Shown here: positions 1-14,244 of the stretch, in pieces
Position numbering within the stretch: position 1 is the first letter of the stretch
Layout: each line of letters starts with the position of its first letter
Notes under the pieces: generated by a model
The model's database searches: none
Told to the model about the DNA's origin: nothing
Seen by the model: only the letters and a program-made list of their open reading frames with translations
Virus record (IMG/VR): IMGVR_UViG_2859777919_000005
DNA length: 14,244 bases
Origin: a virus
Lineage: Duplodnaviria; Heunggongvirae; Uroviricota; Caudoviricetes
Reading direction: 5' to 3' (one strand)
Made by a program: the position numbers and the translations under genes

Positions 1-491
1 CTACGATAACCGCGCATTCAACATGGCTATCTGTTCGTCGTTCATGTCATCAATCCACATACCGTAAATTTCATACACCATTTGCGCAGTTTCATGCCCC
101 ATCTGGCTGGCTATAAATGCCGGGTTCGCTCCTGCCGTCAACAGCCAGCAGGCAAAAGTATGTCGCGTATGGTACGGATTACGGCGGCGAATACCAGCAC
201 GTTTTACTGCTGCATTCCATCTTGCACCCAAACTGCTTACCGAGTAATAAGGTTTCTGTTTTTCGTTACACACCCTGGGCATGAAAACAAAATGCAGTTT
301 TTGCTTTTCAGTTCTGCCGTACTCCCGATGATAAAAAGTGATTTCGCTTTTGCGATGATGCCCGGTCAGTTTGTATTGCTCCTTCAGTGCTTCAAGAGCC
401 GGCTGCAGTAATGTTACCGTCCGGATCCCGGCATTTGTTTTTGGGGGACCGAACATATCAAGTATCGTCAGGTTTCTTCTGACATTCACAA
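1..491 (-). pseudogene. Phage tyrosine integrase, C-terminal catalytic fragment (N-terminus removed by IS600)
   Basis: Minus-strand frame is open from the IS600 junction at 491 to a TAG stop at 3..1. The translation contains YHTRHTFACWLLTAGANPAFIASQMGHETAQMVYEIYGMW, the R-H-x-x-R...Y catalytic region of tyrosine recombinases. Only about 163 codons remain of an expected 350-400. The MPVHL N-terminus in the ORF track is IS600-derived (TTG pseudo-start). Confidence 0.8.
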
Positions 492-534
492 TGAGGTGTA
501 CTGGCAATAGCGGACACTACCATTTGTTCTTTTT

Positions 535-1353
535 TTAAGCAGCCATCTGATGATATTTTTCCCTGAAGGCTGCCGGGGAGATATTCCCCAGACGAGAGTG
601 ACGACGCTGACGATTGTAGAAAATCTCAATGTATTCCCGTATTACTGAGATGGCTTCATCCCGGTTATTAAAACGATAGTGGCTCAGGCTCTCATTTTTC
701 AGCGTTCCCCAGAAGCTTTCCATCGGAGCGTTGTCGTAACAGTTACCTTTACGCGACATTGATGTTTTCAGACCAGACTGCTCCTGTATGACCCGGTAAT
801 CGTATGCGCAGTACTGTGAACCTCGATCAGAGTGGTGGATTAGCCCGGCAGGTGGGCGCTGGCTCCTGAGCGCCATAAACAGGGCTTTACCTGTCAGCTC
901 TTTTGTCATGCGCTCTCCCATGGCGTAGCCGACAATTTCGCACGTATAAACATCTTTGATGCCAGCGAGGTACAACCATCCCTCCTGTGTGGCAACATAC
1001 GTCAGGTCCGCCACCCAGACCTGATTTGGTGCTGTAGGAGCGAACGTCTGGTTCAGCAGATTTGGCGCAACTGGCAGATTGTGGTTCGAGTTCGTAGTCG
1101 CTCTGAACTTGCGTTTCTGCTTACAGCGTAGCCTTAGCTCCTTACGAAGACGTGCCAGTCGGTCACGACCAACGATGATGCCATTCTCTGCCAGCTCCGT
1201 CTGGAGCCGCCGGGTTCCATATGTTTCGCGAGTGCGGATATGTGCCACCTTAATCTCCAGTTTTAGCCGCTCATCACTTTGTTTTCTGTCTGAGGGTTCA
1301 TGCTGTACCCAGTTGTAATAACCGCTCCTGGATACACCAAATACCTGACACAT
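535..1353 (-). CDS. IS600 OrfB (272 aa; DDE integrase-like catalytic domain)
   Basis: ORF with its own ATG; its frame stays open upstream through the A7 run, consistent with OrfAB fusion by -1 frameshifting (established for the IS3 family). This is the only IS600 copy in the window in which that fused frame is unbroken. Confidence 0.8.
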   Translation of the reverse strand: MCQVFGVSRSGYYNWVQHEPSDRKQSDERLKLEIKVAHIRTRETYGTRRLQTELAENGIIVGRDRLARLRKELRLRCKQKRKFRATTNSNHNLPVAPNLLNQTFAPTAPNQVWVADLTYVATQEGWLYLAGIKDVYTCEIVGYAMGERMTKELTGKALFMALRSQRPPAGLIHHSDRGSQYCAYDYRVIQEQSGLKTSMSRKGNCYDNAPMESFWGTLKNESLSHYRFNNRDEAISVIREYIEIFYNRQRRHSRLGNISPAAFREKYHQMAA

Positions 1354-1388
1354 CGCTTCAATGGGAAATTGTTGTCGCCATTGTTCGA

Positions 1389-1691
1389 TTAACGCGTATT
1401 TTTCAGCGACTCCTGTGCAAAATACGCTGTTGCTTTTTTTAATATATCTCGCTCAAGGCGAGCTTCATTTAACGCCTTACGCAGTTGCAGAATTTCAGAT
1501 TCCAGTTCAGCCACCGTGCGGGAACCAGGAGTACCGAGCCCTTTTCTGGCGGCGGTAACCCATTGTCCTAAAGTGCCTTCAGGAAGAGATAATCGGGAAG
1601 CGCCTTCACTGATCGAAAGTTGATTTTCAGGAACCGTTCTGACAGCTTCGGCTTTGAACTCTTTAGAGTAACGTTGGGTTTTTCTGCTCAT
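1389..1691 (-). CDS. IS600 OrfA (100 aa; HTH DNA-binding part of the OrfAB transposase)
   Basis: ORF MSRKTQRYSKEFKAEAVRTV... with the same protein repeated in the other three IS600 copies. An A7 run (complement of 1434-1440) near its 3' end is a candidate -1 programmed frameshift site, and the orfB frame is open across it. Confidence 0.8.
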   Translation of the reverse strand: MSRKTQRYSKEFKAEAVRTVPENQLSISEGASRLSLPEGTLGQWVTAARKGLGTPGSRTVAELESEILQLRKALNEARLERDILKKATAYFAQESLKNTR

Positions 1692-1884
1692 TATTAGCTC
1701 CTTCTGATGCCATTCTATTTCAGGAAGGAGTGTCCGTTAAACTCAGGCTACCTCACTATGCAGCGCGTGCTGGCGTTTTATCAGGGGAAATTTCAGGAGG
1801 CGGTACTGTGAGTAAAATTAGCTATCAGGCTTCAATTACCGCTGGTATTCGCATCAAAGGAGAGGAGCATGGAAATAAAACCAG

Positions 1885-1894
1885 AAGATGAGTT
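1885..1894. repeat. IS1 target-site duplication, left copy (AAGATGAGTT)
   Basis: Identical 10-mer immediately flanks both ends of IS1 copy 1 (also at 2663-2672). IS1 usually makes 9-bp duplications, so this is a 9-10 bp duplication. Confidence 0.85.
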
Positions 1895-1909
1895 GGTAAT
1901 GACTCCAAC

Positions 1910-2413
1910 TTATTGATAGTGTTTTATGTTCAGATAATGCCCGATGACTTTGTCATGCAGCTCCACCGATTTTGAGAACGACAGCGACTTCCGTCCCAGC
2001 CGTGCCAGGTGCTGCCTCAGATTCAGGTTATGCCGCTCAATTCGCTGCGTATATCGCTTGCTGATTACGTGCAGCTTTCCCTTCAGGCGGGATTCATACA
2101 GCGGCCAGCCATCCGTCATCCATATCACCACGTCAAAGGGTGACAGCAGGCTCATAAGACGCCCCAGCGTCGCCATAGTGCGTTCACCGAATACGTGCGC
2201 AACAACCGTCTTCCGGAGACTGTCATACGCGTAAAACAGCCAGCGCTGGCGCGATTTAGCCCCGACATAGCCCCACTGTTCGTCCATTTCCGCGCAGACG
2301 ATGACGTCACTGCCCGGCTGTATGCGCGAGGTTACCGACTGCGGCCTGAGTTTTTTAAGTGACGTAAAATCGTGTTGAGGCCAACGCCCATAATGCGTGC
2401 AGTTGCCCGGCAT
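1910..2413 (-). CDS. insB: IS1 InsB (167 aa; expressed as InsAB' by -1 frameshift)
   Basis: ORF ...[53 protein letters not shown]..., overlapping the insA 3' end in the -1 frame. Confidence 0.9.
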
Positions 2414-2607
2414 CCAACGCCATTCATGGCCATATCAATGATTTTCTGGTGCGTACCGGGTTGAGAAGCGGTGTAAGTGAACTGCAGTTGCCATGTTTTA
2501 CGGCAGTGAGAGCAGAGATAGCGCTGATGTCCGGCAGTGCTTTTGCCGTTACGCACCACCCCGTCAGTAGCTGAACAGGAGGGACAGCTGATAGAAACAG
2601 AAGCCAC
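2332..2607 (-). CDS. insA: IS1 InsA (91 aa)
   Basis: [42 protein letters not shown]..., the zinc-finger/HTH IS1 InsA. The A6C frameshift motif (TTAAAAAAC on the minus strand, about 2350-2358) sits at its 3' end. Confidence 0.9.
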
Positions 2608-2662
2608 TGGAGCACCTCAAAAACACCATCATACACTAAATCAGTAAGTTGGCAGCATCACC

Positions 2663-2672
2663 AAGATGAGTT
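2663..2672. repeat. IS1 target-site duplication, right copy (AAGATGAGTT)
   Basis: Exact direct repeat of 1885-1894. Confidence 0.85.
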
Positions 2673-3095
2673 AAGCAATATCGTTTTATTTCCGGTAAAA
2701 GAGGATGACCCACGTAATCAGGTTAATTTTCTTTATGAACCATCGGAAAGACCATATTGCCATCACGCCTCTGTCCGGGTTGACGAAAAAGAGCGTCAGG
2801 TCCGCTGTAAAATCTGCGGTGCGGTTGTGGAGCCGTTTGACTGGATGCTCTCTGTGGCAAAAAGAGAAACCAGACTGGCAGATGATGTAAGGCTATTGCG
2901 CCAGGAGGAACAGGAAAGGCGGAGAAATATAGAAAAGCTGATACAGATTGAGCGTAACGCGAAAGCGCGGATACGCAGGGCGACAAAATCCAGAACTGAA
3001 TAATTAAATTTAGCACTGTTAAAAATTTAATCCTTAACCGGAGGGATTTCTGCACCCTCAAATCATCAGGAGACCGCCCGAAAGGGCGGTAATGA

Positions 3096-3314
3096 ATGGT
3101 TACATTATTTAGAAAAAAATATCCGCGAAAGAGTAGAACAACAGAATTCCTGTTTCTCATTCTGTTTATCGTGTTGATGACACCGATATCCCCGCTAATT
3201 TTTGTCTGGATAATCGGAAAAATAATTGAGCCAGTTATTGAATTGTATAACGACGTGGTATGGGCGTCATTCAACACACTGCACAATAAAATTAATCCGT
3301 ATAAGGAAAGCTGA
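3096..3314 (+). CDS. Small membrane protein (72 aa), hypothetical
   Basis: AT-rich ORF MVTLFRKKYPRKSRTTEFLFLILFIVLMTPISPLIFVWIIGKIIEPVIEL... with one clear hydrophobic helix. Its stop (3312-3314) is 1 nt before the HNH start codon, so the two are translationally coupled. The SD is weak, so the start is uncertain. Confidence 0.4.
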   Translation: MVTLFRKKYPRKSRTTEFLFLILFIVLMTPISPLIFVWIIGKIIEPVIELYNDVVWASFNTLHNKINPYKES

Positions 3315-3315
3315 T

Positions 3316-3681
3316 ATGGCACTGACGAAAAAACAACGTGCAGAACTGCGCATGAAGTTCGGTGGTCGCTGCGCTTATTGCGGCTGCGAACTTGGCGAAA
3401 AGTGGCATGCAGACCATGTAAAACCGGTCATTCGTTTTGATGGAAATATGCTTCACCAGGAACGTGACGATATATCCAACATGGTACCAGCATGCCACCC
3501 ATGCAATCTGCACAAGCATTGCAGTAGCCTGGAAGATTATCGACGAATTATCAGTGATGGTCGTCGTGAATTCCTTGCGTCCGGGAAAGGCAAAGCGCTG
3601 GTTCGTATGGGATTGGTTGAAATGAAATCTGACCCGGTTGTGTTCTGGTTTGAAAAATATCAAGAAGGGGCTACGGCATGA
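3316..3681 (+). CDS. HNH endonuclease (121 aa)
   Basis: SD AAGGAAAG then ATG. Translation has CAYCGCEL...HADHVKPV...NMVPACHPCNLHK, a zinc-binding CxxC pair around the H-N-H catalytic motif. Confidence 0.8.
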   Translation: MALTKKQRAELRMKFGGRCAYCGCELGEKWHADHVKPVIRFDGNMLHQERDDISNMVPACHPCNLHKHCSSLEDYRRIISDGRREFLASGKGKALVRMGLVEMKSDPVVFWFEKYQEGATA

Positions 3682-4343
3682 CCACTATTACCAAAGAGCG
3701 ACTGCAATGGCTGGCTAACATTTCTGGCCGCGATGATATTGACGATATAGACGGCGGTGAAATTCGTGAACTGGCGCTTATCGCTCTGGCATCACTGGAA
3801 GCAGAGCCTGTAGCGGAATGCATTGTTGAAGATGGGGGCATGTGTATTGACGGGTTCGGTGAGTATGTGGGTCACTCGCTGCCTGATGGAATGCATGAGC
3901 TTTATGCTGCCCCGCGAATGCGACAACCTGATGGATGGAAAGCCGTAGCTGTAGCGTGGAAGGTGACGTTTACTCAAGTTGACCAGGAATCTAATACGTT
4001 CACTGCTATATATTTTGACAAAGCGGAAGTTGAGTGTTGGGTACGACTGCATAAAGCATGTGATTTTCGGGCAGATATAACACCGCTTTACGCAGCGCCG
4101 GCAGTGCCGGTTGCAGTAAACGACGACATGGCTTACGCATTCCATCACGCACTGTCAGATTCATCGCTTGGCTCTGATGAAATCGAAGAAATTAAAACCG
4201 GTTTGCGTGCTGCCTTTGCCAACGTCACTATCCAACCAGAGCCGATAGTGCCGGATGAAATCGGGCCAAACGATAGTAATACGTTTGATTATGTTGATGG
4301 CTGGAACGCCTGCCGCGCTGCCATGCTTAAGGGAGATAAATAA
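3678..4343 (+). CDS. Hypothetical prophage early-region protein (221 aa) with duplicated LYAAP motif
   Basis: Start overlaps the HNH stop (ATGA), with SD AAGGGG upstream. Acidic protein containing two LYAAP-containing segments (MHELYAAPRMRQPDGWKAVAV and ITPLYAAPAVPVAV). No family recognised. Confidence 0.7.
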   Translation: MTTITKERLQWLANISGRDDIDDIDGGEIRELALIALASLEAEPVAECIVEDGGMCIDGFGEYVGHSLPDGMHELYAAPRMRQPDGWKAVAVAWKVTFTQVDQESNTFTAIYFDKAEVECWVRLHKACDFRADITPLYAAPAVPVAVNDDMAYAFHHALSDSSLGSDEIEEIKTGLRAAFANVTIQPEPIVPDEIGPNDSNTFDYVDGWNACRAAMLKGDK

Positions 4344-4708
4344 TGATTAATCGAACCAAACTGGAGCACATTCTCGAATATGCCAGGCAGCAGAAATGTA
4401 TTGGGCAACTTTGTAAAATTCCACCAGGAGATATGGTTGAAATCGTGGAAATGGCCATGCGTAAGGCTGGCAACTCTCCGGTAGCTCCGGCTGGCTGGAT
4501 AAGCTGTAGTGATGCAGTTCCTGCTGAATATTGCGATGTGATTCTTCTCGATGATCTCGGGAATGTATTCCCCGGTTCCTGGGATAAGGTTTTTTGCCCC
4601 ACTCGTGGCGGGAATAAGATGGCTTTTGTGGACAAAGACGGCGTTGAAGTAGAGAGCTCAACTCACTGGATGCCGCTACCGGAACCACCGCAGGAGGTGA
4701 ATCAATGA
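4343..4708 (+). CDS. DUF551-family prophage protein (121 aa)
   Basis: Start overlaps the upstream stop (TAATG), with SD AAGGGAGA. The C-terminal ...THWMPLPEPPQE matches the W-x-PLP-x-PP tail I recall for DUF551 proteins of enterobacterial prophages. Confidence 0.7.
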   Translation: MINRTKLEHILEYARQQKCIGQLCKIPPGDMVEIVEMAMRKAGNSPVAPAGWISCSDAVPAEYCDVILLDDLGNVFPGSWDKVFCPTRGGNKMAFVDKDGVEVESSTHWMPLPEPPQEVNQ

Positions 4709-4788
4709 CCTGGCCTGAGGCATTCACCACGGTAGGAATTGCGATGGCGGTGGCGCTGGTGGTGTATTCGATTTGCCGTTGGGGTTAA
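4705..4788 (+). CDS. 27-aa hydrophobic peptide (MTWPEAFTTVGIAMAVALVVYSICRWG), hypothetical
   Basis: Strong SD AGGAGGTGA 7 nt upstream; ATG overlaps the DUF551 stop (ATGA); a single predicted transmembrane helix; followed directly by an intrinsic terminator. Below the ORF-track length cutoff. Confidence 0.5.
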   Translation: MTWPEAFTTVGIAMAVALVVYSICRWG

Positions 4789-4798
4789 CAAACAAAAA

Positions 4799-4824
4799 CC
4801 CCGGATTGATGGTCCGGGGTTTTT
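4799..4824 (+). terminator. Rho-independent terminator ending the plus-strand operon
   Basis: CCCCGGA (4799-4805) / TCCGGGG (4813-4819) perfect 7-bp GC stem with a 7-nt loop, followed by TTTTT; preceded by an A run, so it could act in both directions. Confidence 0.75.
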
Positions 4825-5162
4825 GAAGGAAACAAAACAGAAACAGCAATTGCCGTTACCTGTTGTTACCATGGCAAGTAAACGTATCTCAGGCGAGCGC
4901 ATTGCGCCGTTCTGACGCAGATAAACTAGCCTGGATAGATGGTGCTGGCAATAAAAAATAGCGTTTTCTTATCGGTGTCGGTAAGATTGCTGCGGGTGCT
5001 TGAGGCTGTCTGCCTCGGGTATGTCACTGTAAGGCAGACAGAGAAAAGCCCCAGTTAACATTACGCGTCCTGCAAGACGCTTAACATTAATCTGAGGCCC
5101 AATCTATGTCTCACAAATGTAGGTTAGCCTCTTACGTGCCGAAAGGCAAGGAGAAGCAGGCT

Positions 5163-5318
5163 ATGAAGCAGCAAAAGGCGATGTTAATCGCCCTGATCGT
5201 CATCTGTTTAACCGTCATTGTGACGGCACTGGTAACGAGGAAAGACCTCTGCGAGGTACGAATCCGAATCGGCCAGACGGAGGTCGCTGTTTTCGTAGAC
5301 TACGAATCTAGAGAGTAA
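5163..5318 (+). CDS. hok: Hok/Gef-family type I toxin (51 aa)
   Basis: MKQQKAMLIALIVICLTVIVTALVTRKDLCEVRIRIGQTEVAVFVDYESRE has an N-terminal transmembrane helix and the conserved TRKDLCEV...GQTEVAVF core. It is closest to HokD/RelF and HokC/Gef as I remember them. The ORF-track extension to 5106 is in frame but probably not the start; SD AAGGAGAAG precedes the ATG at 5163. Confidence 0.85.
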   Translation: MKQQKAMLIALIVICLTVIVTALVTRKDLCEVRIRIGQTEVAVFVDYESRE

Positions 5319-5380
5319 GAGTGACCAGGCGGGAGAGTAATCTCCCGCCACCTTTGATGTGTCAGGCATCCTCAACGCAC

Positions 5381-5410
5381 CCGCACTTAACCCGTTTCGG
5401 CGGTTTTTTT
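5381..5410 (+). terminator. Probable 3' end/terminator of the hok mRNA (abutted by IS1)
   Basis: GC-rich segment CCGCACTTAACCCGTTTCGGCGG followed by T7 at 5404-5410. The stem is imperfect. Preceded by a perfect 9-bp hairpin GGCGGGAGA-GTAA-TCTCCCGCC (5328-5349) right after the hok stop. Confidence 0.4.
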
Positions 5411-5425
5411 GGTAATGACTCCAAC

Positions 5426-5928
5426 TTATTGATAGTGTTTTATGTTCAGATAATGCCCGATGACTTTGTCATGCAGCTCCACCGATTTTGAGAACGACAG
5501 CGACTTCCGTCCCAGCCGTGCCAGGTGCTGCCTCAGATTCAGGTTATGCCGCTCAATTCGCTGCGTATATCGCTTGCTGATTACGTGCAGCTTTCCCTTC
5601 AGGCGGGATTCATACAGCGGCCAGCCATCCGTCATCCATATCACCACGTCAAAGGGTGACAGCAGGCTCATAAGACGCCCCAGCGTCGCCATAGTGCGTT
5701 CACCGAATACGTGCGCAACAACCGTCTTCCGGAGACTGTCATACGCGTAAAACAGCCAGCGCTGGCGCGATTTAGCCCGACATAGCCCCACTGTTCGTCC
5801 ATTTCCGCGCAGACGATGACGTCACTGCCCGGCTGTATGCGCGAGGTTACCGACTGCGGCCTGAGTTTTTTAAGTGACGTAAAATCGTGTTGAGGCCAAC
5901 GCCCATAATGCGTGCAGTTGCCCGGCAT
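5426..5928 (-). pseudogene. insB: IS1 insB, frameshifted (copy 2)
   Basis: The InsB reading frame is split into two overlapping ORFs (5426-5791 and 5668-5928) by the 1-bp deletion. Confidence 0.8.
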
Positions 5929-6122
5929 CCAACGCCATTCATGGCCATATCAATGATTTTCTGGTGCGTACCGGGTTGGGAAGCGGTGTAAGTGAACTGC
6001 AGTTGCCATGTTTTACGGCAGTGAGAGCAGAGATAGCGCTGATGTCCGGCAGTGCTTTTGCCGTTACGCACCACCCCGTCAGTAGCTGAACAGGAGGGAC
6101 AGCTGATAGAAACAGAAGCCAC
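5847..6122 (-). CDS. insA: IS1 InsA (91 aa), copy 2
   Basis: Identical protein to copy 1 insA. Confidence 0.85.
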
Positions 6123-6283
6123 TGGAGCACCTCAAAAACACGATCATACACTAAATCAGTAAGTTGGCAGCATCACCTTTTGTCTCTATGTTGATATAAC
6201 CGTTTGTACTTATAAACCTTGAGGTAGCCTGAGTTTAACGGACACTCCTTCCTGAAATAGAATGGCATCAGAAGGAGCTAATA

Positions 6284-6586
6284 ATGAGCAGAAAAACCCA
6301 ACGTTACTCTAAAGAGTTCAAAGCCGAAGCTGTCAGAACGGTTCTTGAAAATCAACTTTCGATCAGTGAAGGCGCTTCCCGATTATCTCTTCCTGAAGGC
6401 ACTTTAGGACAATGGGTTACCGCCGCCAGAAAAGGGCTCGGTACTCCTGGTTCCCGCACGGTGGCTGAACTGGAATCTGAAATTCTGCAACTGCGTAAGG
6501 CGTTAAATGAAGCTCGCCTTGAGCGAGATATATTAAAAAAAGCAACAGCGTATTTTGCACAGGAGTCGCTGAAAAATACGCGTTAA
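6284..6586 (+). CDS. IS600 OrfA (100 aa), copy 2
   Basis: Full-length OrfA; differs from copy 1 at one residue (L versus P in RTVLENQ). Confidence 0.75.
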   Translation: MSRKTQRYSKEFKAEAVRTVLENQLSISEGASRLSLPEGTLGQWVTAARKGLGTPGSRTVAELESEILQLRKALNEARLERDILKKATAYFAQESLKNTR

Positions 6587-6623
6587 TCGAACAATGGCGA
6601 CAACAATTTCCCATTGAAGCGAT

Positions 6624-7438
6624 GTGTCAGGTATTTGGTGTATCCAGGGCGGTTATTACAACTGGGTACAGCATGAACCCTCAGACAGAAAACAAAGTGA
6701 TGAGCGGCTAAAACTGGAGATTAAGGTGGCACATATCCGCACTCGCGAAACATATGGAACCCGGCGGCTCCAGACGGAGCTGGCAGAGAATGGCATCATC
6801 GTTGGTCGTGACCGACTGGCACGTCTTCGTAAGGAGCTAAGGCTACGCTGTAAGCAGAAACGCAAGTTCAGAGCGACTACGAACTCGAACCACAATCTGC
6901 CAGTTGCGCCAAATCTGCTGAACCAGACGTTCGCTCCTACAGCACCAAATCAGGTCTGGGTGGCGGACCTGACGTATGTTGCCACACAGGAGGGATGGTT
7001 GTACCTCGCTGGCATCAAAGATGTTTATACGTGCGAAATTGTCGGCTACGCCATGGAGAGCGCATGACAAAAGAGCTGACAGGTAAAGCCCTGTTTATGG
7101 CGCTCAGGAGCCAGCGCCCACCTGCCGGGCTAATCCACCACTCTGATCGAGGTTCACAGTACTGCGCATACGATTACCGGGTCATACAGGAGCAGTCTGG
7201 TCTGAAAACATCAATGTCGCGTAAAGGTAACTGTTACGACAACGCTCCGATGGAAAGCTTCTGGGGAACGCTGAAAAATGAGAGCCTGAGCCACTATCGT
7301 TTTAATAACCGGGATGAAGCCATCTCAGTAATACGGGAATACATTGAGATTTTCTACAATCGTCAGCGTCGTCACTCTCGTCTGGGGAATATCTCCCCGG
7401 CAGCCTTCAGGGAAAAATATCATCAGATGGCTGCTTAA
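6624..7438 (+). pseudogene. IS600 orfB, frameshifted (copy 2)
   Basis: OrfB sequence is split across two overlapping ORFs (6624-7067 and 6995-7438). Confidence 0.8.
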
Positions 7439-7531
7439 AAAAAGAACAAATGGTAGTGTCCGCTATTGCCAGTACACCTCACACTCTATCCAACAAACCA
7501 CCCACAGTTAATCGGAATAAAAGCAGAGTGC

Positions 7532-7604
7532 TTATGAATGATCGCACGCCCGAAGGTTAGTATTTCTGCACAGCAATTTTGCAAAAAAAGGCGATCATTC
7601 ATAA
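7532..7604. repeat. Perfect 14-bp inverted repeat (TTATGAATGATCGC / GCGATCATTCATAA) with 45-bp spacer
   Basis: Read directly: arms at 7532-7545 and 7591-7604. The spacer contains the palindrome TTTTGCAAAA. Lies on the 3' side of the tRNA array. Confidence 0.6.
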
Positions 7605-7611
7605 CTTAAAC

Positions 7612-7657
7612 GTCTTTCAGTCACTCCGGGATTTCCCATCATCGCAGACTGAAAGAC
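7612..7657. repeat. Perfect 11-bp inverted repeat (GTCTTTCAGTC / GACTGAAAGAC) with 24-bp spacer
   Basis: Read directly: arms at 7612-7622 and 7647-7657, 6 nt beyond the 3' end of tRNA-Gly on the transcribed (minus) strand. Could form a processing or termination hairpin. Confidence 0.6.
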
Positions 7658-7663
7658 TCTGAC

Positions 7664-7738
<75 letters not shown>

Positions 7739-7741
7739 ATA

Positions 7742-7817
<76 letters not shown>

Positions 7818-7819
7818 GC

Positions 7820-7896
7820 TGGCCCACCACCGAGGACTCGAACCTCGCACCGTCAACTTAGAAGGTTGATGCTCTATCCGGATGAGCTAGTGGTGG
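7820..7896 (-). tRNA. tRNA-Arg (anticodon UCU), argN-like
   Basis: Reverse complement CCACCACTAGCTCATCCGGATAGAGCATCAACCTTCTAAGTTGACGGTGCGAGGTTCGAGTCCTCGGTGGTGGGCCA; acceptor CCACCAC/GTGGTGG, anticodon stem TCAAC/GTTGA, loop CTTCTAA, T stem CGAGG/CCTCG, encoded CCA. The unusual C1:G72 start makes the exact 5' boundary less certain. Confidence 0.8.
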
Positions 7897-7897
7897 T

Positions 7898-7974
7898 TGG
7901 TGGCCCTTGCTGGACTTGAACCAGCGACCTGGCGATTATGAGTCGCTCGCTCTGACCAACTGAGCTAAAGGGCC
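7898..7974 (-). tRNA. tRNA with CAU anticodon, ileX/ileZ-like (Ile2, lysidine-dependent) or Met
   Basis: Reverse complement GGCCCTTTAGCTCAGTTGGTCAGAGCGAGCGACTCATAATCGCCAGGTCGCTGGTTCAAGTCCAGCAAGGGCCACCA; anticodon loop CTCATAA. Overall close to E. coli ileX as I recall it, hence probably an AUA-reading tRNA-Ile2. Confidence 0.8.
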
Positions 7975-8062
7975 GGAGGCAGAATAATAACCATATGTCA
8001 TCACATCTGCAAACTCATCTGACCACCAGCACGTTTAACGTCCTGTGCCGTTTTTCAGGTAT

Positions 8063-8084
8063 AAAAAAACCCGCATAAAGCGGG
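8063..8084 (-). terminator. Rho-independent terminator downstream of the Q-like gene (tR'-like)
   Basis: On the minus strand: GC hairpin GCGGG-TTTAT-CCCGC (plus coordinates 8070-8084) followed by U7 (complement of A7 at 8063-8069). It lies about 80 nt downstream of the Q-like stop and about 90 nt upstream of the tRNA array, the position of tR' in lambdoid late operons. Confidence 0.7.
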
Positions 8085-8163
8085 CTCTTTCAAATGTCCA
8101 TGTCTGCTATTCGCCTCGCGGTACAGCTTTGCGAAGCGTACAAGAATTGAAGCAGTTTTTACG

Positions 8164-8718
8164 TCAAAAAGCAATAACTTTTTTCTCTATACCAAAAGCC
8201 ATAACCATTGGTTTGTACAAAATAAATTCTGCCACCTTTAGCCAATGCTCAATGCGTCTTTCACAGGTTCTTAAACTCCATTTCGGGTGTGCATCATTCA
8301 GCAGTTCAGCCATTTTGCGTTTGGTCATCCCCCGCCCCTCATACCGTTGCCGAAGGACGCTAATCAATCCTGGATGCTCTGCCAGCACCTCACTTATGAC
8401 CCGATCAATACATAACGCCTCTGCATCAGTACAATGCGCCAGCCAGCTCTTTTGCTTACCGTTAATCATATCCCGCAAAAAAGCCTCAAGTTCAGACTTG
8501 TTCAGACCTGCTTTTTTCATCCTCCGGAGCGCCTCGTTAATTGCCGTTTTTGTCAGCTTTTTAGAGGTCAACATCAGGTTAAACATATTCCCCGTCTTAC
8601 CGCCACCAATATACGACCAGCGCCCCCACATACGTAGTTTTCCCTGAATCCAGACACTTTCCAGCGTGGTGAGACGAAGGTGTTCTCCGCTTTTTCCTGT
8701 ATTCGTTGGGTAAATCAT
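8164..8718 (-). CDS. Probable late-gene antiterminator Q (184 aa)
   Basis: Start chosen at ATG 8716-8718 (SD AAGGAGGG 8 nt upstream; ATGA overlap with the upstream gene's stop) rather than the longer ORF-track start. Assignment rests mainly on position: last gene of a nin-like block, followed by an intrinsic terminator and phage tRNAs. No catalytic motif recognised; the family is not verified. Confidence 0.55.
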   Translation of the reverse strand: MIYPTNTGKSGEHLRLTTLESVWIQGKLRMWGRWSYIGGGKTGNMFNLMLTSKKLTKTAINEALRRMKKAGLNKSELEAFLRDMINGKQKSWLAHCTDAEALCIDRVISEVLAEHPGLISVLRQRYEGRGMTKRKMAELLNDAHPKWSLRTCERRIEHWLKVAEFILYKPMVMAFGIEKKVIAF

Positions 8719-9005
8719 AAATATCCCTCCTTTCTCCAGATTTCTTGTGTGCGAAAAACACCTTCTGCATGCATCAGGCGTAATTCTTCTTTGGTGTAAT
8801 CGCTGGTTTTTACCCGCCCGTCGATTAAATCGTGGCACGAGCTACAGGCAATCGCTGCCTGCATATCGTGTGGCTTTATCGCTGTTCCGCACGTTCCCGC
8901 CAGTCGGTAATGCGCCAGCACAGACGTTTCCGGATCGTGATTGCAGTAGCCAGGAATTCTGACGGTGCACATCTGCCCCCGCGCCGCTTTACGTAAATCC
9001 ACCAT
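8715..9005 (-). CDS. DUF1364 (YbcO-like) nin-region protein (96 aa)
   Basis: MVDLRKAARGQMCTVRIPGYCNHDPETSVLAHYRLAGTCGTAIKPHDMQAAIACSSCHDLIDGR... with the Cys/His pattern I recall for YbcO of the DLP12 nin region. Start overlaps the upstream stop (TAATG). Confidence 0.7.
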   Translation of the reverse strand: MVDLRKAARGQMCTVRIPGYCNHDPETSVLAHYRLAGTCGTAIKPHDMQAAIACSSCHDLIDGRVKTSDYTKEELRLMHAEGVFRTQEIWRKEGYL

Positions 9006-9604
9006 TACGCAAACTCCAGCAGCTGCGCGGCCACATTTTCGACTTGTTCCGGAGAGGAAAATTTACGGAACAGAATCCAGTTCCACAGCACATTCAGAAC
9101 AGATTTATAAACCTGCTGAAACTCGGTTTCGTCCATATTCGCAAAAGCGATGGATTTTGCCCGACGCCCGCGGCTACCGTCCGGATAAAAATGTTCGGTG
9201 TAAAATCCAGCCTGAATGGTTACCCACTCGCGAAAAGCCTCAAACGACTTTAGCAATGCCGTATCCCGGGTTCTGCGTGTCGCAACTGTATTCAGATATT
9301 GCTCTGCGGCTTCGCTCAGAGCTGGCGTATGTTCCCGACCTACTGATTCGCACAGGTAATCAACGAAACCAGACAGCAGTTCTCGTTCGCGAGGCGTGAT
9401 CGCCCCACCGACCGGAGTCCAGTAATCGAATCCCAGTTGCAGGAGTTTGAAAAAACGCTTGTGGAATGCGTAGTTACGCACACGCTTAAAGTCTGCGTGT
9501 ATCCACTCACCTGTTTTGATTTGATGCAGAAAATCGCAACTCTCCGGCGTCGCCGGGAGAAGTAATCCGGAAGAGGTTTGTTTGATCAGTTGTATATGCG
9601 CCAT
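9005..9604 (-). CDS. Nin-region protein, possibly DUF1367 family (199 aa)
   Basis: ORF MAHIQLIKQTSSGLLLPATPESCDFLHQIKTGEWIHADFKRVRNYAFHKRFF... with SD GGAGAA upstream; translationally coupled to the DUF1364 gene. Family assignment from memory only. Confidence 0.45.
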   Translation of the reverse strand: MAHIQLIKQTSSGLLLPATPESCDFLHQIKTGEWIHADFKRVRNYAFHKRFFKLLQLGFDYWTPVGGAITPRERELLSGFVDYLCESVGREHTPALSEAAEQYLNTVATRRTRDTALLKSFEAFREWVTIQAGFYTEHFYPDGSRGRRAKSIAFANMDETEFQQVYKSVLNVLWNWILFRKFSSPEQVENVAAQLLEFA

Positions 9605-9675
9605 CGTAGTTCTCCGCTGGCGCAGTAGAATGGGTGTTCAGCCCGTTATGTAGTATACCAGAATTAATGCCAATA

Positions 9676-9893
9676 CTAACAGGATGCTCTGACTCGCAAT
9701 TCATCCAGCAGTTTATCATTTCCCATAATGTCACTTACCCTCATCGGTAAAAAAATTGCCTTTCGACCATTACGATACATCATTGATTTTTTGGTTTCAG
9801 GGAAGTAATCCATTTCGACTATAACTGACAGGTCATCACGACGTATGACTGCGTATTTACTACTAAATAGTTTCTTTATTTTTTCCACGATGC
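9676..9893 (-). pseudogene. C-terminal 72 codons of an AT-rich gene truncated by IS600 copy 3
   Basis: Minus-strand frame runs from the IS600 junction (9893) to a TAG at 9678-9676: ...SIVEKIKKLFSSKYAVIRRDDLSVIVEMDYFPETKKSMMYRNGRKAIFLPMRVSDIMGNDKLLDELRVRASC. Lies just upstream of the nin genes. No family recognised. Confidence 0.4.
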
Positions 9894-9936
9894 TGAGGTG
9901 TACTGGCAATAGCGGACACTACCATTTGTTCTTTTT

Positions 9937-10749
9937 TTAAGCAGCCATCTGATGATATTTTTCCCTGAAGGCTGCCGGGGAGATATTCCCCAGACGAGAG
10001 TGACGACGCTGACGATTGTAGAAAATCTCAATGTATTCCCGTATTACTGAGATGGCTTCATCCCGGTTATTAAAACGATAGTGGCTCAGGCTCTCATTTT
10101 TCAGCGTTCCCCAGAAGCTTTCCATCGGAGCGTTGTCGTAACAGTTACCTTTACGCGACATTGATGTTTTCAGACCAGACTGCTCCTGTATGACCCGGTA
10201 ATCGTATGCGCAGTACTGTGAACCTCGATCAGAGTGGTGGATTAGCCCGGCAGGTGGGCGCTGGCTCCTGAGCGCCATAAACAGGGCTTTACCTGTCAGC
10301 TCTTTTGTCATGCGCTCTCCCATGGCGTAGCCGACAATTTCGCACGTATAAACATCTTTGATGCCAGCGAGGTACAACCATCCCTCCTGTGTGGCAACAT
10401 ACGTCAGGTCCGCCACCCAGACCTGATTTGGTGCTGTAGGAGCGAACGTCTGGTTCAGCAGATTTGGCGCAACTGGCAGATTGTGGTTCGAGTTCGTAGT
10501 CGCTCTGAACTTGCGTTTCTGCTTACAGCGTAGCCTTAGCTCCTTACGAAGACGTGCCAGTCGGTCACGACCAACGATGATGCCATTCTCTGCCAGCTCC
10601 GTCTGGAGCCGCCGGGTTCCATATGTTTCGCGAGTGCGGATATGTGCCACCTTAATCTCCAGTTTTAGCCGCTCATCACTTTGTTTTCTGTCTGAGGGTT
10701 CATGCTGTACCCAGTTGTAATAACCGCTCATACACCAAATACCTGACAC
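9937..10749 (-). CDS. IS600 orfB, copy 3 (270 aa, GTG start, altered N-terminus; probably non-functional without orfA)
   Basis: ORF identical to copy 1 OrfB after residue 10; the N-terminus is shifted by the 4-bp deletion. Confidence 0.5.
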   Translation of the reverse strand: MSGIWCMSGYYNWVQHEPSDRKQSDERLKLEIKVAHIRTRETYGTRRLQTELAENGIIVGRDRLARLRKELRLRCKQKRKFRATTNSNHNLPVAPNLLNQTFAPTAPNQVWVADLTYVATQEGWLYLAGIKDVYTCEIVGYAMGERMTKELTGKALFMALRSQRPPAGLIHHSDRGSQYCAYDYRVIQEQSGLKTSMSRKGNCYDNAPMESFWGTLKNESLSHYRFNNRDEAISVIREYIEIFYNRQRRHSRLGNISPAAFREKYHQMAA

Positions 10750-10786
10750 ATCGCTTCAATGGGAAATTGTTGTCGCCATTGTTCGA

Positions 10787-11066
10787 TTAACGCGTATTTT
10801 TCAGCGACTCCTGTGCAAAATACGCTGTTGCTTTTTTTAATATATCTCGCTCAAGGCGAGCTTCATTTAACGCCTTACGCAGTTGCAGAATTTCAGATTC
10901 CAGTTCAGCCACCGTGCGGGAACCAGGAGTACCGAGCCCTTTTCTGGCGGCGGTAACCCATTGTCCTAAAGTGCCTTCAGGAAGAGATAATCGGGAAGCG
11001 CCTTCACTGATCGAAAGTTGATTTTCAAGAACCGTTCTGACAGCTTCAGCTTTGAACTCTTTAGAG
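10787..11066 (-). pseudogene. IS600 orfA, 5'-truncated (copy 3)
   Basis: OrfA residues from SKEFKAEAV onward are present; the first 8 codons and the left inverted repeat are missing. Confidence 0.8.
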
Positions 11067-11739
11067 GTATCGATACCGGCTGACCACACAGCGCTTCGGG
11101 AACGCTGTAACGATTACCACCAACCTCGATATAGCTGTCCCAGGACACATGGCGGATATCGAAGTAACTGGTATCGAAGTCTGTATCCGGTAACGGCTGC
11201 AGATGTTCCTGCTCCAGCGCGAAGCGCTGTTCCGGCGTTTCTTTGAACTGGCGAAGCTCCCGTTTGTCAGCCACATCGGCTATCCATTGCTCCAGTTGTT
11301 GATTGACATGAGTGAAGCTGTCGAACCTGCGGTACCGGACGAAGAAGTTCTCCTTGAGGTATTTCACCATCCGCTCAACCTTACCTTTTGTTCTGGCCCT
11401 GCGTGGACGGCATGCCCGTGGCAGGAAGTTATAGTGGTCAGCCAGCAACAGGAATCCGGAGTTGAACACGACTTTCCCGTTGTTATTCTTCAGCACCGCA
11501 GCCTTCTGGTTATCAACCAGCACCGTTTTCACACAATCACCGAAGTAGCGGAAGGCGCGAACCAGTGATTCGTAGGTATGCTCAGCATCCTGTTTTGGTG
11601 CGGCGAAGACATGGAAGCTGCGGGAGAACCCCAGCGTATTAACCGCAAAGTTAACTTTGCACCGTTGCCCGGCAACCTCCACCTCAACTTCGCCCCAGTC
11701 ATGCTGGAGCTGGTATCCAGGCTGAGTTTCGAAGCGAAC
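11067..11739 (-). pseudogene. IS21-family transposase istA, internal fragment
   Basis: Minus-strand frame encodes ...FHVFAAPKQDAEHTYESLVRAFRYFGDCVKTVLVDNQKAAVLKNNNGKVVFNSGFLLLADHYNFLPRACRPRRARTKGKVERMVKYLKENFF..., which I recognise as the catalytic region of IstA-type transposases. Cut at both ends by IS600 copies; no start codon and no inverted repeats of its own. Confidence 0.65.
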
Positions 11740-11803
11740 TGAGGTAGCCTGAGTTTAACGGACACTCCTTCCTGAAATAGAATGGCATCAGAAGGAGCTA
11801 ATA

Positions 11804-12136
11804 ATGAGCAGAAAAACCCAACGTTACTCTAAAGAGTTCAAAGCCGAAGCTGTCAGAACGGTTCTTGAAAATCAACTTTCGATCAGTGAAGGCGCTTCCC
11901 GATTATCTCTTCCTGAAGGCACTTTAGGACAATGGGTTACCGCCGCCAGAAAAGGGCTCGGTACTCCTGGTTCCCGCACGGTGGCTGAACTGGAATCTGA
12001 AATTCTGCAACTGCGTAAGGCGTTAAATGAAGCTCGCCTTGAGCGAGATATATTAAAAAAAGCAACAGCGTATTTTGCACAGGAGTCGCTGAAAATACGC
12101 GTTAATCGAACAATGGCGACAACAATTTCCCATTGA
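11804..12136 (+). pseudogene. IS600 orfA with frameshifted 3' end (copy 4)
   Basis: 110-aa ORF: OrfA residues 1-96, then a frameshifted tail IRVNRTMATTISH. Confidence 0.65.
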
Positions 12137-12142
12137 AGCGAT

Positions 12143-12957
12143 GTGTCAGGTATTTGGTGTATCCGGGGCGGTTATTACAACTGGGTACAGCATGAACCCT
12201 CAGACAGAAAACAAAGTGATGAGCGGCTAAAACTGGAGATTAAGGTGGCACATATCCGCACTCGCGAAACATATGGAACCCGGCGGCTCCAGACGGAGCT
12301 GGCAGAGAATGGCATCATCGTTGGTCGTGACCGACTGGCACGTCTTCGTAAGGAGCTAAGGCTACGCTGTAAGCAGAAACGCAAGTTCAGAGCGACTACG
12401 AACTCGAACCACAATCTGCCAGTTGCGCCAAATCTGCTGAACCAGACGTTCGCTCCTACAGCACCAAATCAGGTCTGGGTGGCGGACCTGACGTATGTTG
12501 CCACACAGGAGGGATGGTTGTACCTCGCTGGCATCAAAGATGTTTATACGTGCGAAATTGTCGGCTACGCCATGGGAGAGCGCATGACAAAGAGCTGACA
12601 GGTAAAGCCCTGTTTATGGCGCTCAGGAGCCAGCGCCCACCTGCCGGGCTAATCCACCACTCTGATCGAGGTTCACAGTACTGCGCATACGATTACCGGG
12701 TCATACAGGAGCAGTCTGGTCTGAAAACATCAATGTCGCGTAAAGGTAACTGTTACGACAACGCTCCGATGGAAAGCTTCTGGGGAACGCTGAAAAATGA
12801 GAGCCTGAGCCACTATCGTTTTAATAACCGGGATGAAGCCATCTCAGTAATACGGGAATACATTGAGATTTTCTACAATCGTCAGCGTCGTCACTCTCGT
12901 CTGGGGAATATCTCCCCGGCAGCCTTCAGGGAAAAATATCATCAGATGGCTGCTTAA
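12143..12957 (+). pseudogene. IS600 orfB, frameshifted (copy 4)
   Basis: OrfB sequence is split across two overlapping ORFs (12143-12598 and 12514-12957). Confidence 0.8.
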
Positions 12958-13000
12958 AAAAAGAACAAATGGTAGTGTCCGCTATTGCCAGTACACCTCA

Positions 13001-14244
13001 GCCGTCTGGCGATACCCGGCGCATTCGGCTTTGGGTGTGCTTTTCTGCCTGAAGATGTTATCCGTTTTGACACTAAGAGTGATTTCCTGGCCTGGGTAAG
13101 GAATGCGCTGCCAGGTGAATATTCCGTTGCTGGCCCCTACGACATCATCATACCCGACACACGGTTTGAAGGGGTGCTCAGCATCCGGTGGACTGATGCA
13201 CGCCCTGAGACAACAGAACCGAGGTACAGAGCCAAATCCCTTACTTTTTACGGCATTAACGGCCCCATTTATCACACCCGCTACTGCTACTGGCCCATAT
13301 CCAGACTGACTGGCTGGGTGAAAATAAATATAACCACAGAAGATATTATTTACAGAATCGTGGCGAGCTCTGTCTGCAACAGATGGGGAGACCCTGACAT
13401 TGGCGGGCTGATTATTGCTGCGTACCAGGGAGAAGCTGACGGTGATAAAGTCATCAGACTTGTCAGGGGGCAGTCATACAGAGGCTCACGACTGGGACCG
13501 GTGGGGATTTCAGTGCCCAGTACTCCCACCGGAACGTATATAGCATCCCCACAATTTTCATTACGGGATGTTCAGAGCATTCATTACCGGGGTCATATAG
13601 CGCCCTGTCCGGGGTGCCGGATGCTCATGTCTCTGGCGCAATGCCCGGGCTTTTTATTCGCACATCGTGAGGAATGCACCGTGGAAATTAAAAAAATCAT
13701 TAATCCCCGTTATACCGAAAGTGGCGCAGTAGACTGTGACGTTTTTTTTGACGACAGGGACCAGGCAGTCCCCTACACAGCCACCGCTGATGATGTCGCA
13801 CCGACGGGTCAGCGAATCTGGCAGGAACTGCAAAGTGGCAAATGGGGTGAGATAGCCCCATTCACTGTGACACCAGAAATGCTGGAAGCGGCCAGAGAGG
13901 CCAGACGTCAGGGAATTGAAGCATGGCGCACAGAACAGGAGGCGAAGCCGTTCACGTTTGAATGGAACGGTCGTATCTGGAATGCTGGCCCCAACTCACT
14001 GGGCCGCCTTTATCCGGTGGTAATGGCTGCGAAATCCGACATTGTACGGGACGTGATGACGTGGGGTGATGCCGATAATCAGCAGGTGAAACAGTCGATG
14101 CCGGAACTGGAAGAACTGGCGGCAGCAATGGCTCAGGCACAGGTTGAGCGCAATGACGAGATTTATCGCCGTCAGCGGGAGCTGAAGGAAGAGCTGAATA
14201 GTCTGAAGGATTTGAATTCGGTTAGGAATTTTATCGTGGAATAA
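13001..14244 (+). pseudogene. C-terminal 414 codons of an unidentified protein, N-terminally truncated by IS600 copy 4
   Basis: Long open frame from the IS600 junction to TAA at 14242-14244. The N-terminal part is Cys/Gly-rich and looks beta-rich (...YDIIIPDTRFEGVLSIRWTDARPETTEPRYRAKSLTFYGINGPIYHTRYCYWPISRLTGWVKINITTEDIIYRIV...); the last 60 aa are a charged, coiled-coil-like tail (...MPELEELAAAMAQAQVERNDEIYRRQRELKEELNSLKDL...). No family recognised; a phage tail-fibre distal domain is one guess. Confidence 0.6.

Follow-up and report, generated by a model that had tools for sequence, protein, structure and literature searches.

Organisation of the split gene and its surroundings

The segment studied within the window, by which we mean the whole stretch of 14,244 bp analysed here, corresponds to the nin-like part of a lambdoid prophage of the Rac type and adjoins dbpA-ttcA and an integrase remnant. 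Its genes are arranged in the order DUF977 (tail only), the split gene, DUF4014 (3096–3314, + strand), an HNH endonuclease (3316–3681, + strand), a protein of 221 amino acids belonging to no family (3678–4343, + strand), DUF551 (4343–4708, + strand) and hok/sok. The DUF977 gene, which normally precedes the split gene, is represented by its last 56 nt (...MQRVLAFYQGKFQEAVL*; 1756–1811, + strand), and an element of 1264 bp named IS600 from its annotation (492–1755, – strand) ends 56 nt before the DUF977 stop. A PADLOC search of the neighbourhood returned matches for the HNH protein only, and these were weak similarities to PtuB-type HNH profiles.

The 5′ fragment of the split gene (1869–1894, + strand) comprises codons 1–8 and two nucleotides of codon 9. 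It is 100% identical to positions 7367–7392 of the corresponding E. coli FDAARGOS_944 locus (L003) and is preceded by the Shine-Dalgarno sequence AAGGAG (1857–1862, + strand), located 6 nt before the ATG at 1869. The Stx2a phage ArgO145, phage 640R1 and E. coli FDAARGOS_944 have the same AAGGAG ahead of their intact gene. The 3′ fragment (2673–3003, + strand) extends from the last nucleotide of codon 9 to the stop and encodes the zinc knuckle and the basic helix discussed below. Joining 1869–1894 to 2673–3003 yields 357 nt, that is 118 codons plus the stop. The original prediction that deletion of the IS1 element and one flanking repeat restores an open reading frame of 118 codons behind a near-consensus Shine-Dalgarno sequence was thereby confirmed, the product being identical to WP_000403784.1, a hypothetical protein of 118 amino acids from E. 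coli FDAARGOS_944.

As it now stands, the 5′ fragment reads on into IS1 and specifies a peptide of 15 residues. The frame of the 3′ fragment is closed upstream by a stop inside IS1 at about position 2572, and its next potential start is a GTG at 2827; no in-frame ATG, GTG or TTG was found between these two positions, which leaves the zinc knuckle without a standard start codon from which it could be translated.

Two smaller features were observed beside the split gene. A short frame (1810–1891; VSKISYQASITAGIRIKGEEHGNKTRR*) runs over the DUF977 stop and into the start of the split gene, and its TGA (1889–1891) sits in the left repeat flanking IS1 and was thus kept by the duplication. In ArgO145, the 3′ end matching this frame belongs to an Ea22-like gene, and the database entries P0002, P0004 and P0043 are among the Ea22-like::zinc-ribbon fusions. 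Furthermore, a G+C-rich hairpin (GACCGCCC-GAAA-GGGCGGT; 3067–3090) without a T run lies between the split gene and the start codon of DUF4014. It is conserved in 640R1, not in ArgO145, and may act on translation or RNA stability.

The IS1 element and its target-site duplication

The two fragments of the gene are separated by an IS1 element of 768 bp (copy 1; 1895–2662, – strand) with the right inverted repeat IRR at 1895–1917 and the left inverted repeat IRL at 2640–2662. The element begins at 1895 with GGTAATGACTCCAACTTATTGAT and terminates at 2662 with ATCAGTAAGTTGGCAGCATCACC, and the canonical IRR and IRL sequences match exactly at both ends. The insA gene (2607–2332, – strand) encodes InsA of 91 amino acids, and the A6C frameshift motif AAAAAAC at IS1 nucleotide 307 leads, after a –1 shift, to an intact InsAB′ protein of 232 amino acids. 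Because InsAB′ is intact, this copy looks intact and potentially active. Its length, terminal inverted repeats and InsAB′ frameshift are those of the IS1 family, which is characterised by about 768 bp, roughly 23-bp imperfect terminal inverted repeats and an insA/insB′ –1 frameshift at A6C. E. coli IS1 copies with about 98–99% identity to copy 1 are annotated as ‘IS1-like element IS1A family transposase’, and the Pfam families Zn_ribbon_InsA, HTH_Tnp_IS1 and DDE_Tnp_IS1 match the same transposase gene in the chromosome locus L005.

As originally predicted, the element is abutted on both sides by the same 10-mer, AAGATGAGTT, at 1885–1894 and 2663–2672. The 14,244-bp window contains this 10-mer at these two places only, each touching IS1 copy 1, and the chance expectation for a 10-bp match at two fixed positions is about 4^-10 (1e-6). 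The junctions read GATGAGTT|GGTAATGACTCC and GCATCACC|AAGATGAGTTAAGC. We regard the length of 10 bp as genuine because the element between the repeats measures exactly 768 bp and has canonical ends. The insertion point had been placed after codon 8, which is close to its true location inside codon 9 (TT|A), after nucleotide 26 of the open reading frame. The target is AT-rich, with a G+C content of 30% in the 10-mer and 41% over about 50 bp on each side.

Simple insertions of the IS1A/IS1R type resemble the one described here in the length of 768 bp, the inverted repeats, insA, the A6C site and the 232-residue InsAB′ as well as in the AT-rich target and the flanking direct repeat. They differ in the size of the duplication, which in this family is usually 8–9 bp according to a passage in PMC12903888, whereas the direct repeat of copy 1 measures 10 bp. 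A full-text literature search yielded nothing relevant on 10-bp IS1 duplications. The duplications made by IS1 are said to vary in length, going by the title of a 1985 report by Iida et al. (PNAS 82:839), which PMC12903888 cites.

The empty site and its distribution among genomes

The same prophage segment is present in E. coli FDAARGOS_944 (NZ_CP065613.1, locus L003) with a single AAGATGAGTT and no IS1. The flanks of this empty site are 100% identical to those in the window, and the downstream 2.7 kb are 99.8% identical. Because the empty site contains one copy of the 10-mer, the repeat around IS1 is a true duplication. An uninterrupted allele with a single 10-mer in a related genome had been named as a check of the prediction, and the lack of any homologue or a different frame at the uninterrupted locus as its refutation; the allele was found, with the same frame, and the outcome favours the prediction. 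At the position of the repeat, ArgO145 and 640R1 carry AGGATGAGTT, with G at position 2 where the window has A; the presence of the strain-specific A in both repeats is expected if this allele was the one duplicated.

Exact look-up of the neighbouring 221-residue protein retrieved ten complete chromosomes. The right junction was present in all ten and both junctions in eight, and the empty site was found in none (0/10). Two of these chromosomes, CP019689 (strain 75/02) and CP026802 (strain ATCC 29930), are confirmed Shigella sonnei, and CP049183.1 (L013) matches window positions 1–10340 at 99.97%. In addition, the database protein P0063, described as ‘partial [Shigella sonnei]’, reads from IS1 into the open reading frame exactly as in the window. 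The insertion had been called a dated event, and this holds for its relative order, as the ten chromosomes share it and the E. coli relative does not have it; the comparison gives no absolute date. The insertion could be used to mark lineages within S. sonnei.

A further change of the locus was seen in CP044191.1 and CP064376.1 (L008 and L012). At about 4160–4225, the end of an IS600 element (...GGCTACCTCA) abuts IS1, which lacks its first GG, and the left repeat is deleted together with nucleotides 1–26 of the open reading frame. This deletion represents a later decay step of the same locus.

The protein encoded by the reconstructed gene

The reconstructed protein matched PHROG 1621, a family annotated as function unknown (E=3e-56; residues 1–117 on profile positions 1–120 of 134), and it is 99% identical to an annotated coding sequence in Stx2a phages. 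A search of 5426 complete E. coli genomes with the reconstructed open reading frame alone revealed intact copies in 1679. PHROG 1621 is thus an uncharacterised family that roughly one in three complete E. coli genomes carries, as do Stx2a phages. Full-length homologues with 45–72% identity were found in Klebsiella, Kluyvera, Salmonella, Serratia, Yersinia, Erwinia and Pluralibacter.

In an alignment of 36 sequences with 45–96% identity, the residues M1, F15, P16, C38, H40, C54 and C57 are invariant. F15 and P16 fall in the N-terminal motif ELSNVVxFP (alignment residues 8–16), which, together with the helix NIEKLIQIERNAKARIRR (alignment residues 84–110), is nearly invariant from Escherichia to Erwinia and Yersinia at an overall identity of about 45%. 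Within this helix, much of LRxEExxRRxNIEKLIQIERNAKARIRR is invariant in the 36 sequences, and each invariant helix column is encoded by two to five different codons across six genera; it is therefore the protein, not the DNA, that is under constraint. The near-invariance of the helix and of ELSNVVxFP points to a binding partner that would likewise be conserved.

The C-HH...C-x2-C motif described originally is present as C38-x-H40...C54-x2-C57, with these four residues invariant, whereas H39 varies. All four predicted ligands of a zinc knuckle (C38, H40, C54 and C57) are thus found, accompanied by model strands at 43–46 and 51–54. The structural model was generated with AlphaFold2 for P0001, which is 96% identical to the reconstruction, using 35 sequences. 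It has a mean pLDDT of 76.5, with low confidence for residues 1–40, and consists of short beta hairpins at 43–61 followed by a single helix at 63–117 with pLDDT values >90 at 81–110. The basic C-terminus noted originally is accordingly a predicted helix of 55 residues with a pI of 11.1; the N-terminal third of the protein is acidic (pI 4.3) and probably disordered. The four invariant ligands, the weak similarities to TFIIB zinc ribbons described below and this model make it plausible that a knuckle binding zinc is joined to a long basic helix.

Searches of Pfam (with the single sequence and with the 36 family members), NCBIfam and PADLOC gave no match above threshold for the split protein, sequence and profile searches of the PDB were empty, and a fold search with the model gave no significant match. 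The best similarities in Pfam and Foldseek were both to zinc ribbons of the TFIIB type. Pfam PF08271 (Zn_Ribbon_TF) scored 21.5 bits (E=1.7e-4), which is under its gathering score of 29, and matched 12 of the 36 family members with E values up to 0.1; the best Foldseek match was the TFIIB ribbon 1pft (E=0.41, probability 0.80, 27 columns). Both proteins share two knuckles on short beta hairpins. In the TFIIB-type ribbon, however, the second ligand is a cysteine and cyclin-fold repeats follow, whereas in the split-gene protein it is a histidine followed by one long basic helix, and there is no sign in it of RNA polymerase binding. Ea8.5 and Orf73 of lambda's exo-xis region are comparable as small metal-binding accessory proteins of the lambdoid early region, metal binding being predicted for the protein studied here. 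Orf73 of phage 24B was called a ‘C4 zinc finger protein’, and regulatory roles are suspected for these small proteins (PMC4195576). The architecture of the split-gene protein, a ribbon and a long helix, differs from that of Ea8.5 and Orf73, and it shows no sequence similarity to any solved structure, either as a single sequence or as a profile. We infer that the protein may depend on zinc, that its helix may pair and that it may bind nucleic acid or another protein.

Gene context in other prophages and the right end of IS1

In prophages of Klebsiella, Serratia and Yersinia, the gene is located 3′ of YbcO, RusA, NinG or NinH with a 4-nt overlap. A small open reading frame comes next (YlcG-like in Klebsiella), followed by a Q-type antiterminator in Klebsiella and Yersinia or a protein of 204 amino acids belonging to no family in Serratia, and then by the lysis genes. 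The gene shares with nin-region genes a place in the delayed-early rightward operon, the 4-nt overlap and a Q-type antiterminator one small open reading frame further downstream, but its product does not match the named Nin families in Pfam, and in ArgO145, unlike in this setting, the same gene belongs to the leftward early region, where an Ea22-like gene comes before it. The neighbours differ again in Salmonella, in several coliphages including 640R1 and in E. coli TW14425.

The almost invariant helix and the usual site of the gene one small open reading frame before Q would fit a role of PHROG 1621 as an unrecognised zinc-dependent regulator or host-factor binder at the early-to-late switch, which Shigella would have lost repeatedly through IS elements. 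We regard this idea as doubtful.

A consensus scan of the right IS1-gene junction detected no sigma-70-like site on the + strand. The only promoter-like site at this end of the element is the inward promoter of IS1 itself, on the – strand. If TTGGCA of the IS1 end is taken as a –35 element, the hexamer at 17-nt spacing is TAAGCA, which agrees with TATAAT at 2 of 6 positions, and insA and insB are transcribed away from the downstream genes.

Origin and consequences of the insertion

We favour, with a probability of roughly 0.88, a simple IS1 insertion that caused a null mutation of the zinc-ribbon gene during neutral, IS-driven decay of the prophage. In this account a potentially active IS1 inserted into one of the small early genes of a lambdoid prophage (Rac-type, on the ttcA side), in an ancestor of the S. 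sonnei-type chromosomes retrieved here. A staggered cut over nucleotides 17–26 of the open reading frame was repaired with duplication of these 10 bp. The outcome is a null mutation: the 5′ stub specifies the 15-residue peptide, and the 3′ part retains knuckle and helix, having lost the ribosome-binding site and the start codon, behind an oppositely transcribed IS1 of 768 bp. The lost protein of 118 amino acids would normally be produced from the delayed-early (nin-region) transcript, a short distance ahead of the Q antiterminator. IS1 elements are polar whichever way they are oriented; the likely consequence of the insertion is loss of the protein together with a block to read-through from upstream. 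It would represent one neutral step in the IS-driven decay of a prophage that was already non-functional. The insertion, its duplication, the empty site, the existence of the gene and its conservation are demonstrated here, and zinc binding, oligomerisation, a binding partner and neutrality are inferences.

The original prediction went further and suggested that the protein may be a nucleic-acid-binding regulator of the downstream HNH/DUF551 genes, which are considered here together with DUF4014, and that outward promoter elements of the IS1 ends may change their expression. The split gene and these genes are co-oriented and closely spaced both here and in FDAARGOS_944, DUF4014 and HNH lie a few genes downstream also in ArgO145, and the C-terminal helix is basic (pI 11.1); moreover, IS1 is reported in PMC12903888 to form gene-activating fusion promoters in some cases. 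A dedicated regulator should however remain linked to its targets, and this linkage was found to be broken across genera and in several coliphages: neither HNH nor DUF551 follows the gene in the relatives from Klebsiella, Serratia, Yersinia and Salmonella, and the downstream genes of 640R1 and E. coli TW14425 also differ. A dedicated regulatory role is therefore unsupported. The junction is likewise without a + strand promoter, TAAGCA is a poor –10 element, and insA and insB point away, so that the outward promoter was not borne out either. We consider this explanation very improbable.

Inactivation of the gene by selection, for example if the protein harms the host or promotes induction, is improbable in our view. 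Shigella lineages would then have fixed IS knock-outs of it repeatedly, and three or more further alleles of this protein that are chimeric and truncated speak for this, namely P0050 (S. sonnei), broken after residue 81, and P0058 (S. flexneri) and P0057, both broken after residue 77; their sequences suggest independent interruptions of paralogous prophage copies. Such broken alleles are, however, expected in Shigella because its IS density is high: the reference chromosomes contain 229–348 IS copies and at least 199 pseudogenes (Hawkey et al. 2020, PMC7373316). The window alone contains two IS1 and four IS600 copies or fragments in addition to inversions, and the early region of the prophage is already lost in this strain, which also argues against selection. 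A chance frame, or a coincidental 10-mer around an IS1 that arrived by recombination between IS1 copies, has a practically negligible probability. The second IS1 copy (5411–6177) lacks a duplication, which indicates IS1-mediated rearrangement nearby, but the empty site, which has just one 10-mer between flanks that are identical, and the chance expectation of about 1e-6 contradict such an origin. Full-length homologues across genera show constraint at the protein level, and the gene is annotated as a coding sequence in phages and in E. coli. This candidate was accordingly refuted by the empty site, the conservation in the alignment and the codon variation.

Neutral decay through a simple insertion, the reading we prefer, agrees with what has been described for Shigella, where the five IS elements expanded in all species include IS1 and IS600 (PMC7373316). 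As there, a coding sequence has been inactivated and strains are rearranged relative to each other; the locus is the same in kind, differing in that one accessory prophage gene is concerned here and not one for metabolism or virulence. The feature, which public genomes already contain, is an unexceptional instance of a known phenomenon. It represents a fully reconstructable IS1 pseudogenisation with a less usual 10-bp duplication and has little wider importance. Together with the neighbouring IS600 events, the insertion forms a record of a Rac-type prophage decaying stepwise.

Further IS elements and rearrangements in the window

Four IS600 copies or fragments were identified, at 492–1755, 6220–7481, 9894–11066 and 11740–13002. 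In S. sonnei ATCC 29930 (L014), the 3-bp duplication CTA of IS600 is kept, whereas in the strain of the window the left flank of IS600 492–1755 is replaced by an integrase fragment, through a secondary rearrangement. This left-flank replacement and the rearrangements have left these genes, in this strain, without the prophage's early promoters upstream of them. In a comparison of four chromosomes, window positions 6220–9893 were inverted relative to L005, L008 and L014 and collinear with CP049183.1 (L013). The third IS600 breaks off at 11066 beside a stretch of about 670 bp with an rve/Mu-transposase-C-like fragment (10966–11682, – strand).

IS1 copy 2 (5411–6177, – strand) is 767 bp long and has the same orientation as copy 1, from which it differs by two substitutions and a 1-bp deletion at alignment column 366, in the transposase coding region. 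Its flanks (...GGTTTTTTT | TTTTGTCTC...) showed no target duplication. Judged by these features, the copy is probably defective and located at the border of a rearrangement or deletion. Directly before it lies the hok/sok-type toxin-antitoxin locus (4994–5318), in which Rfam sok scored 118 bits (4994–5168) and the Hok/Gef open reading frame (5106–5318) matched Pfam with E=1.7e-21.

The prophage also carries a tRNA cluster (7664–7974, – strand) with the order Gly(tcc)-Thr(tgt)-Arg(tct)-Met(cat). The CAT tRNA of its E. coli counterpart (L003, 98.6% identity) is listed in RefSeq as tRNA-Ile, which is presumably lysidine-modified. After the cluster come DUF1133/Q-like, YbcO and DUF1367 genes, inverted here.
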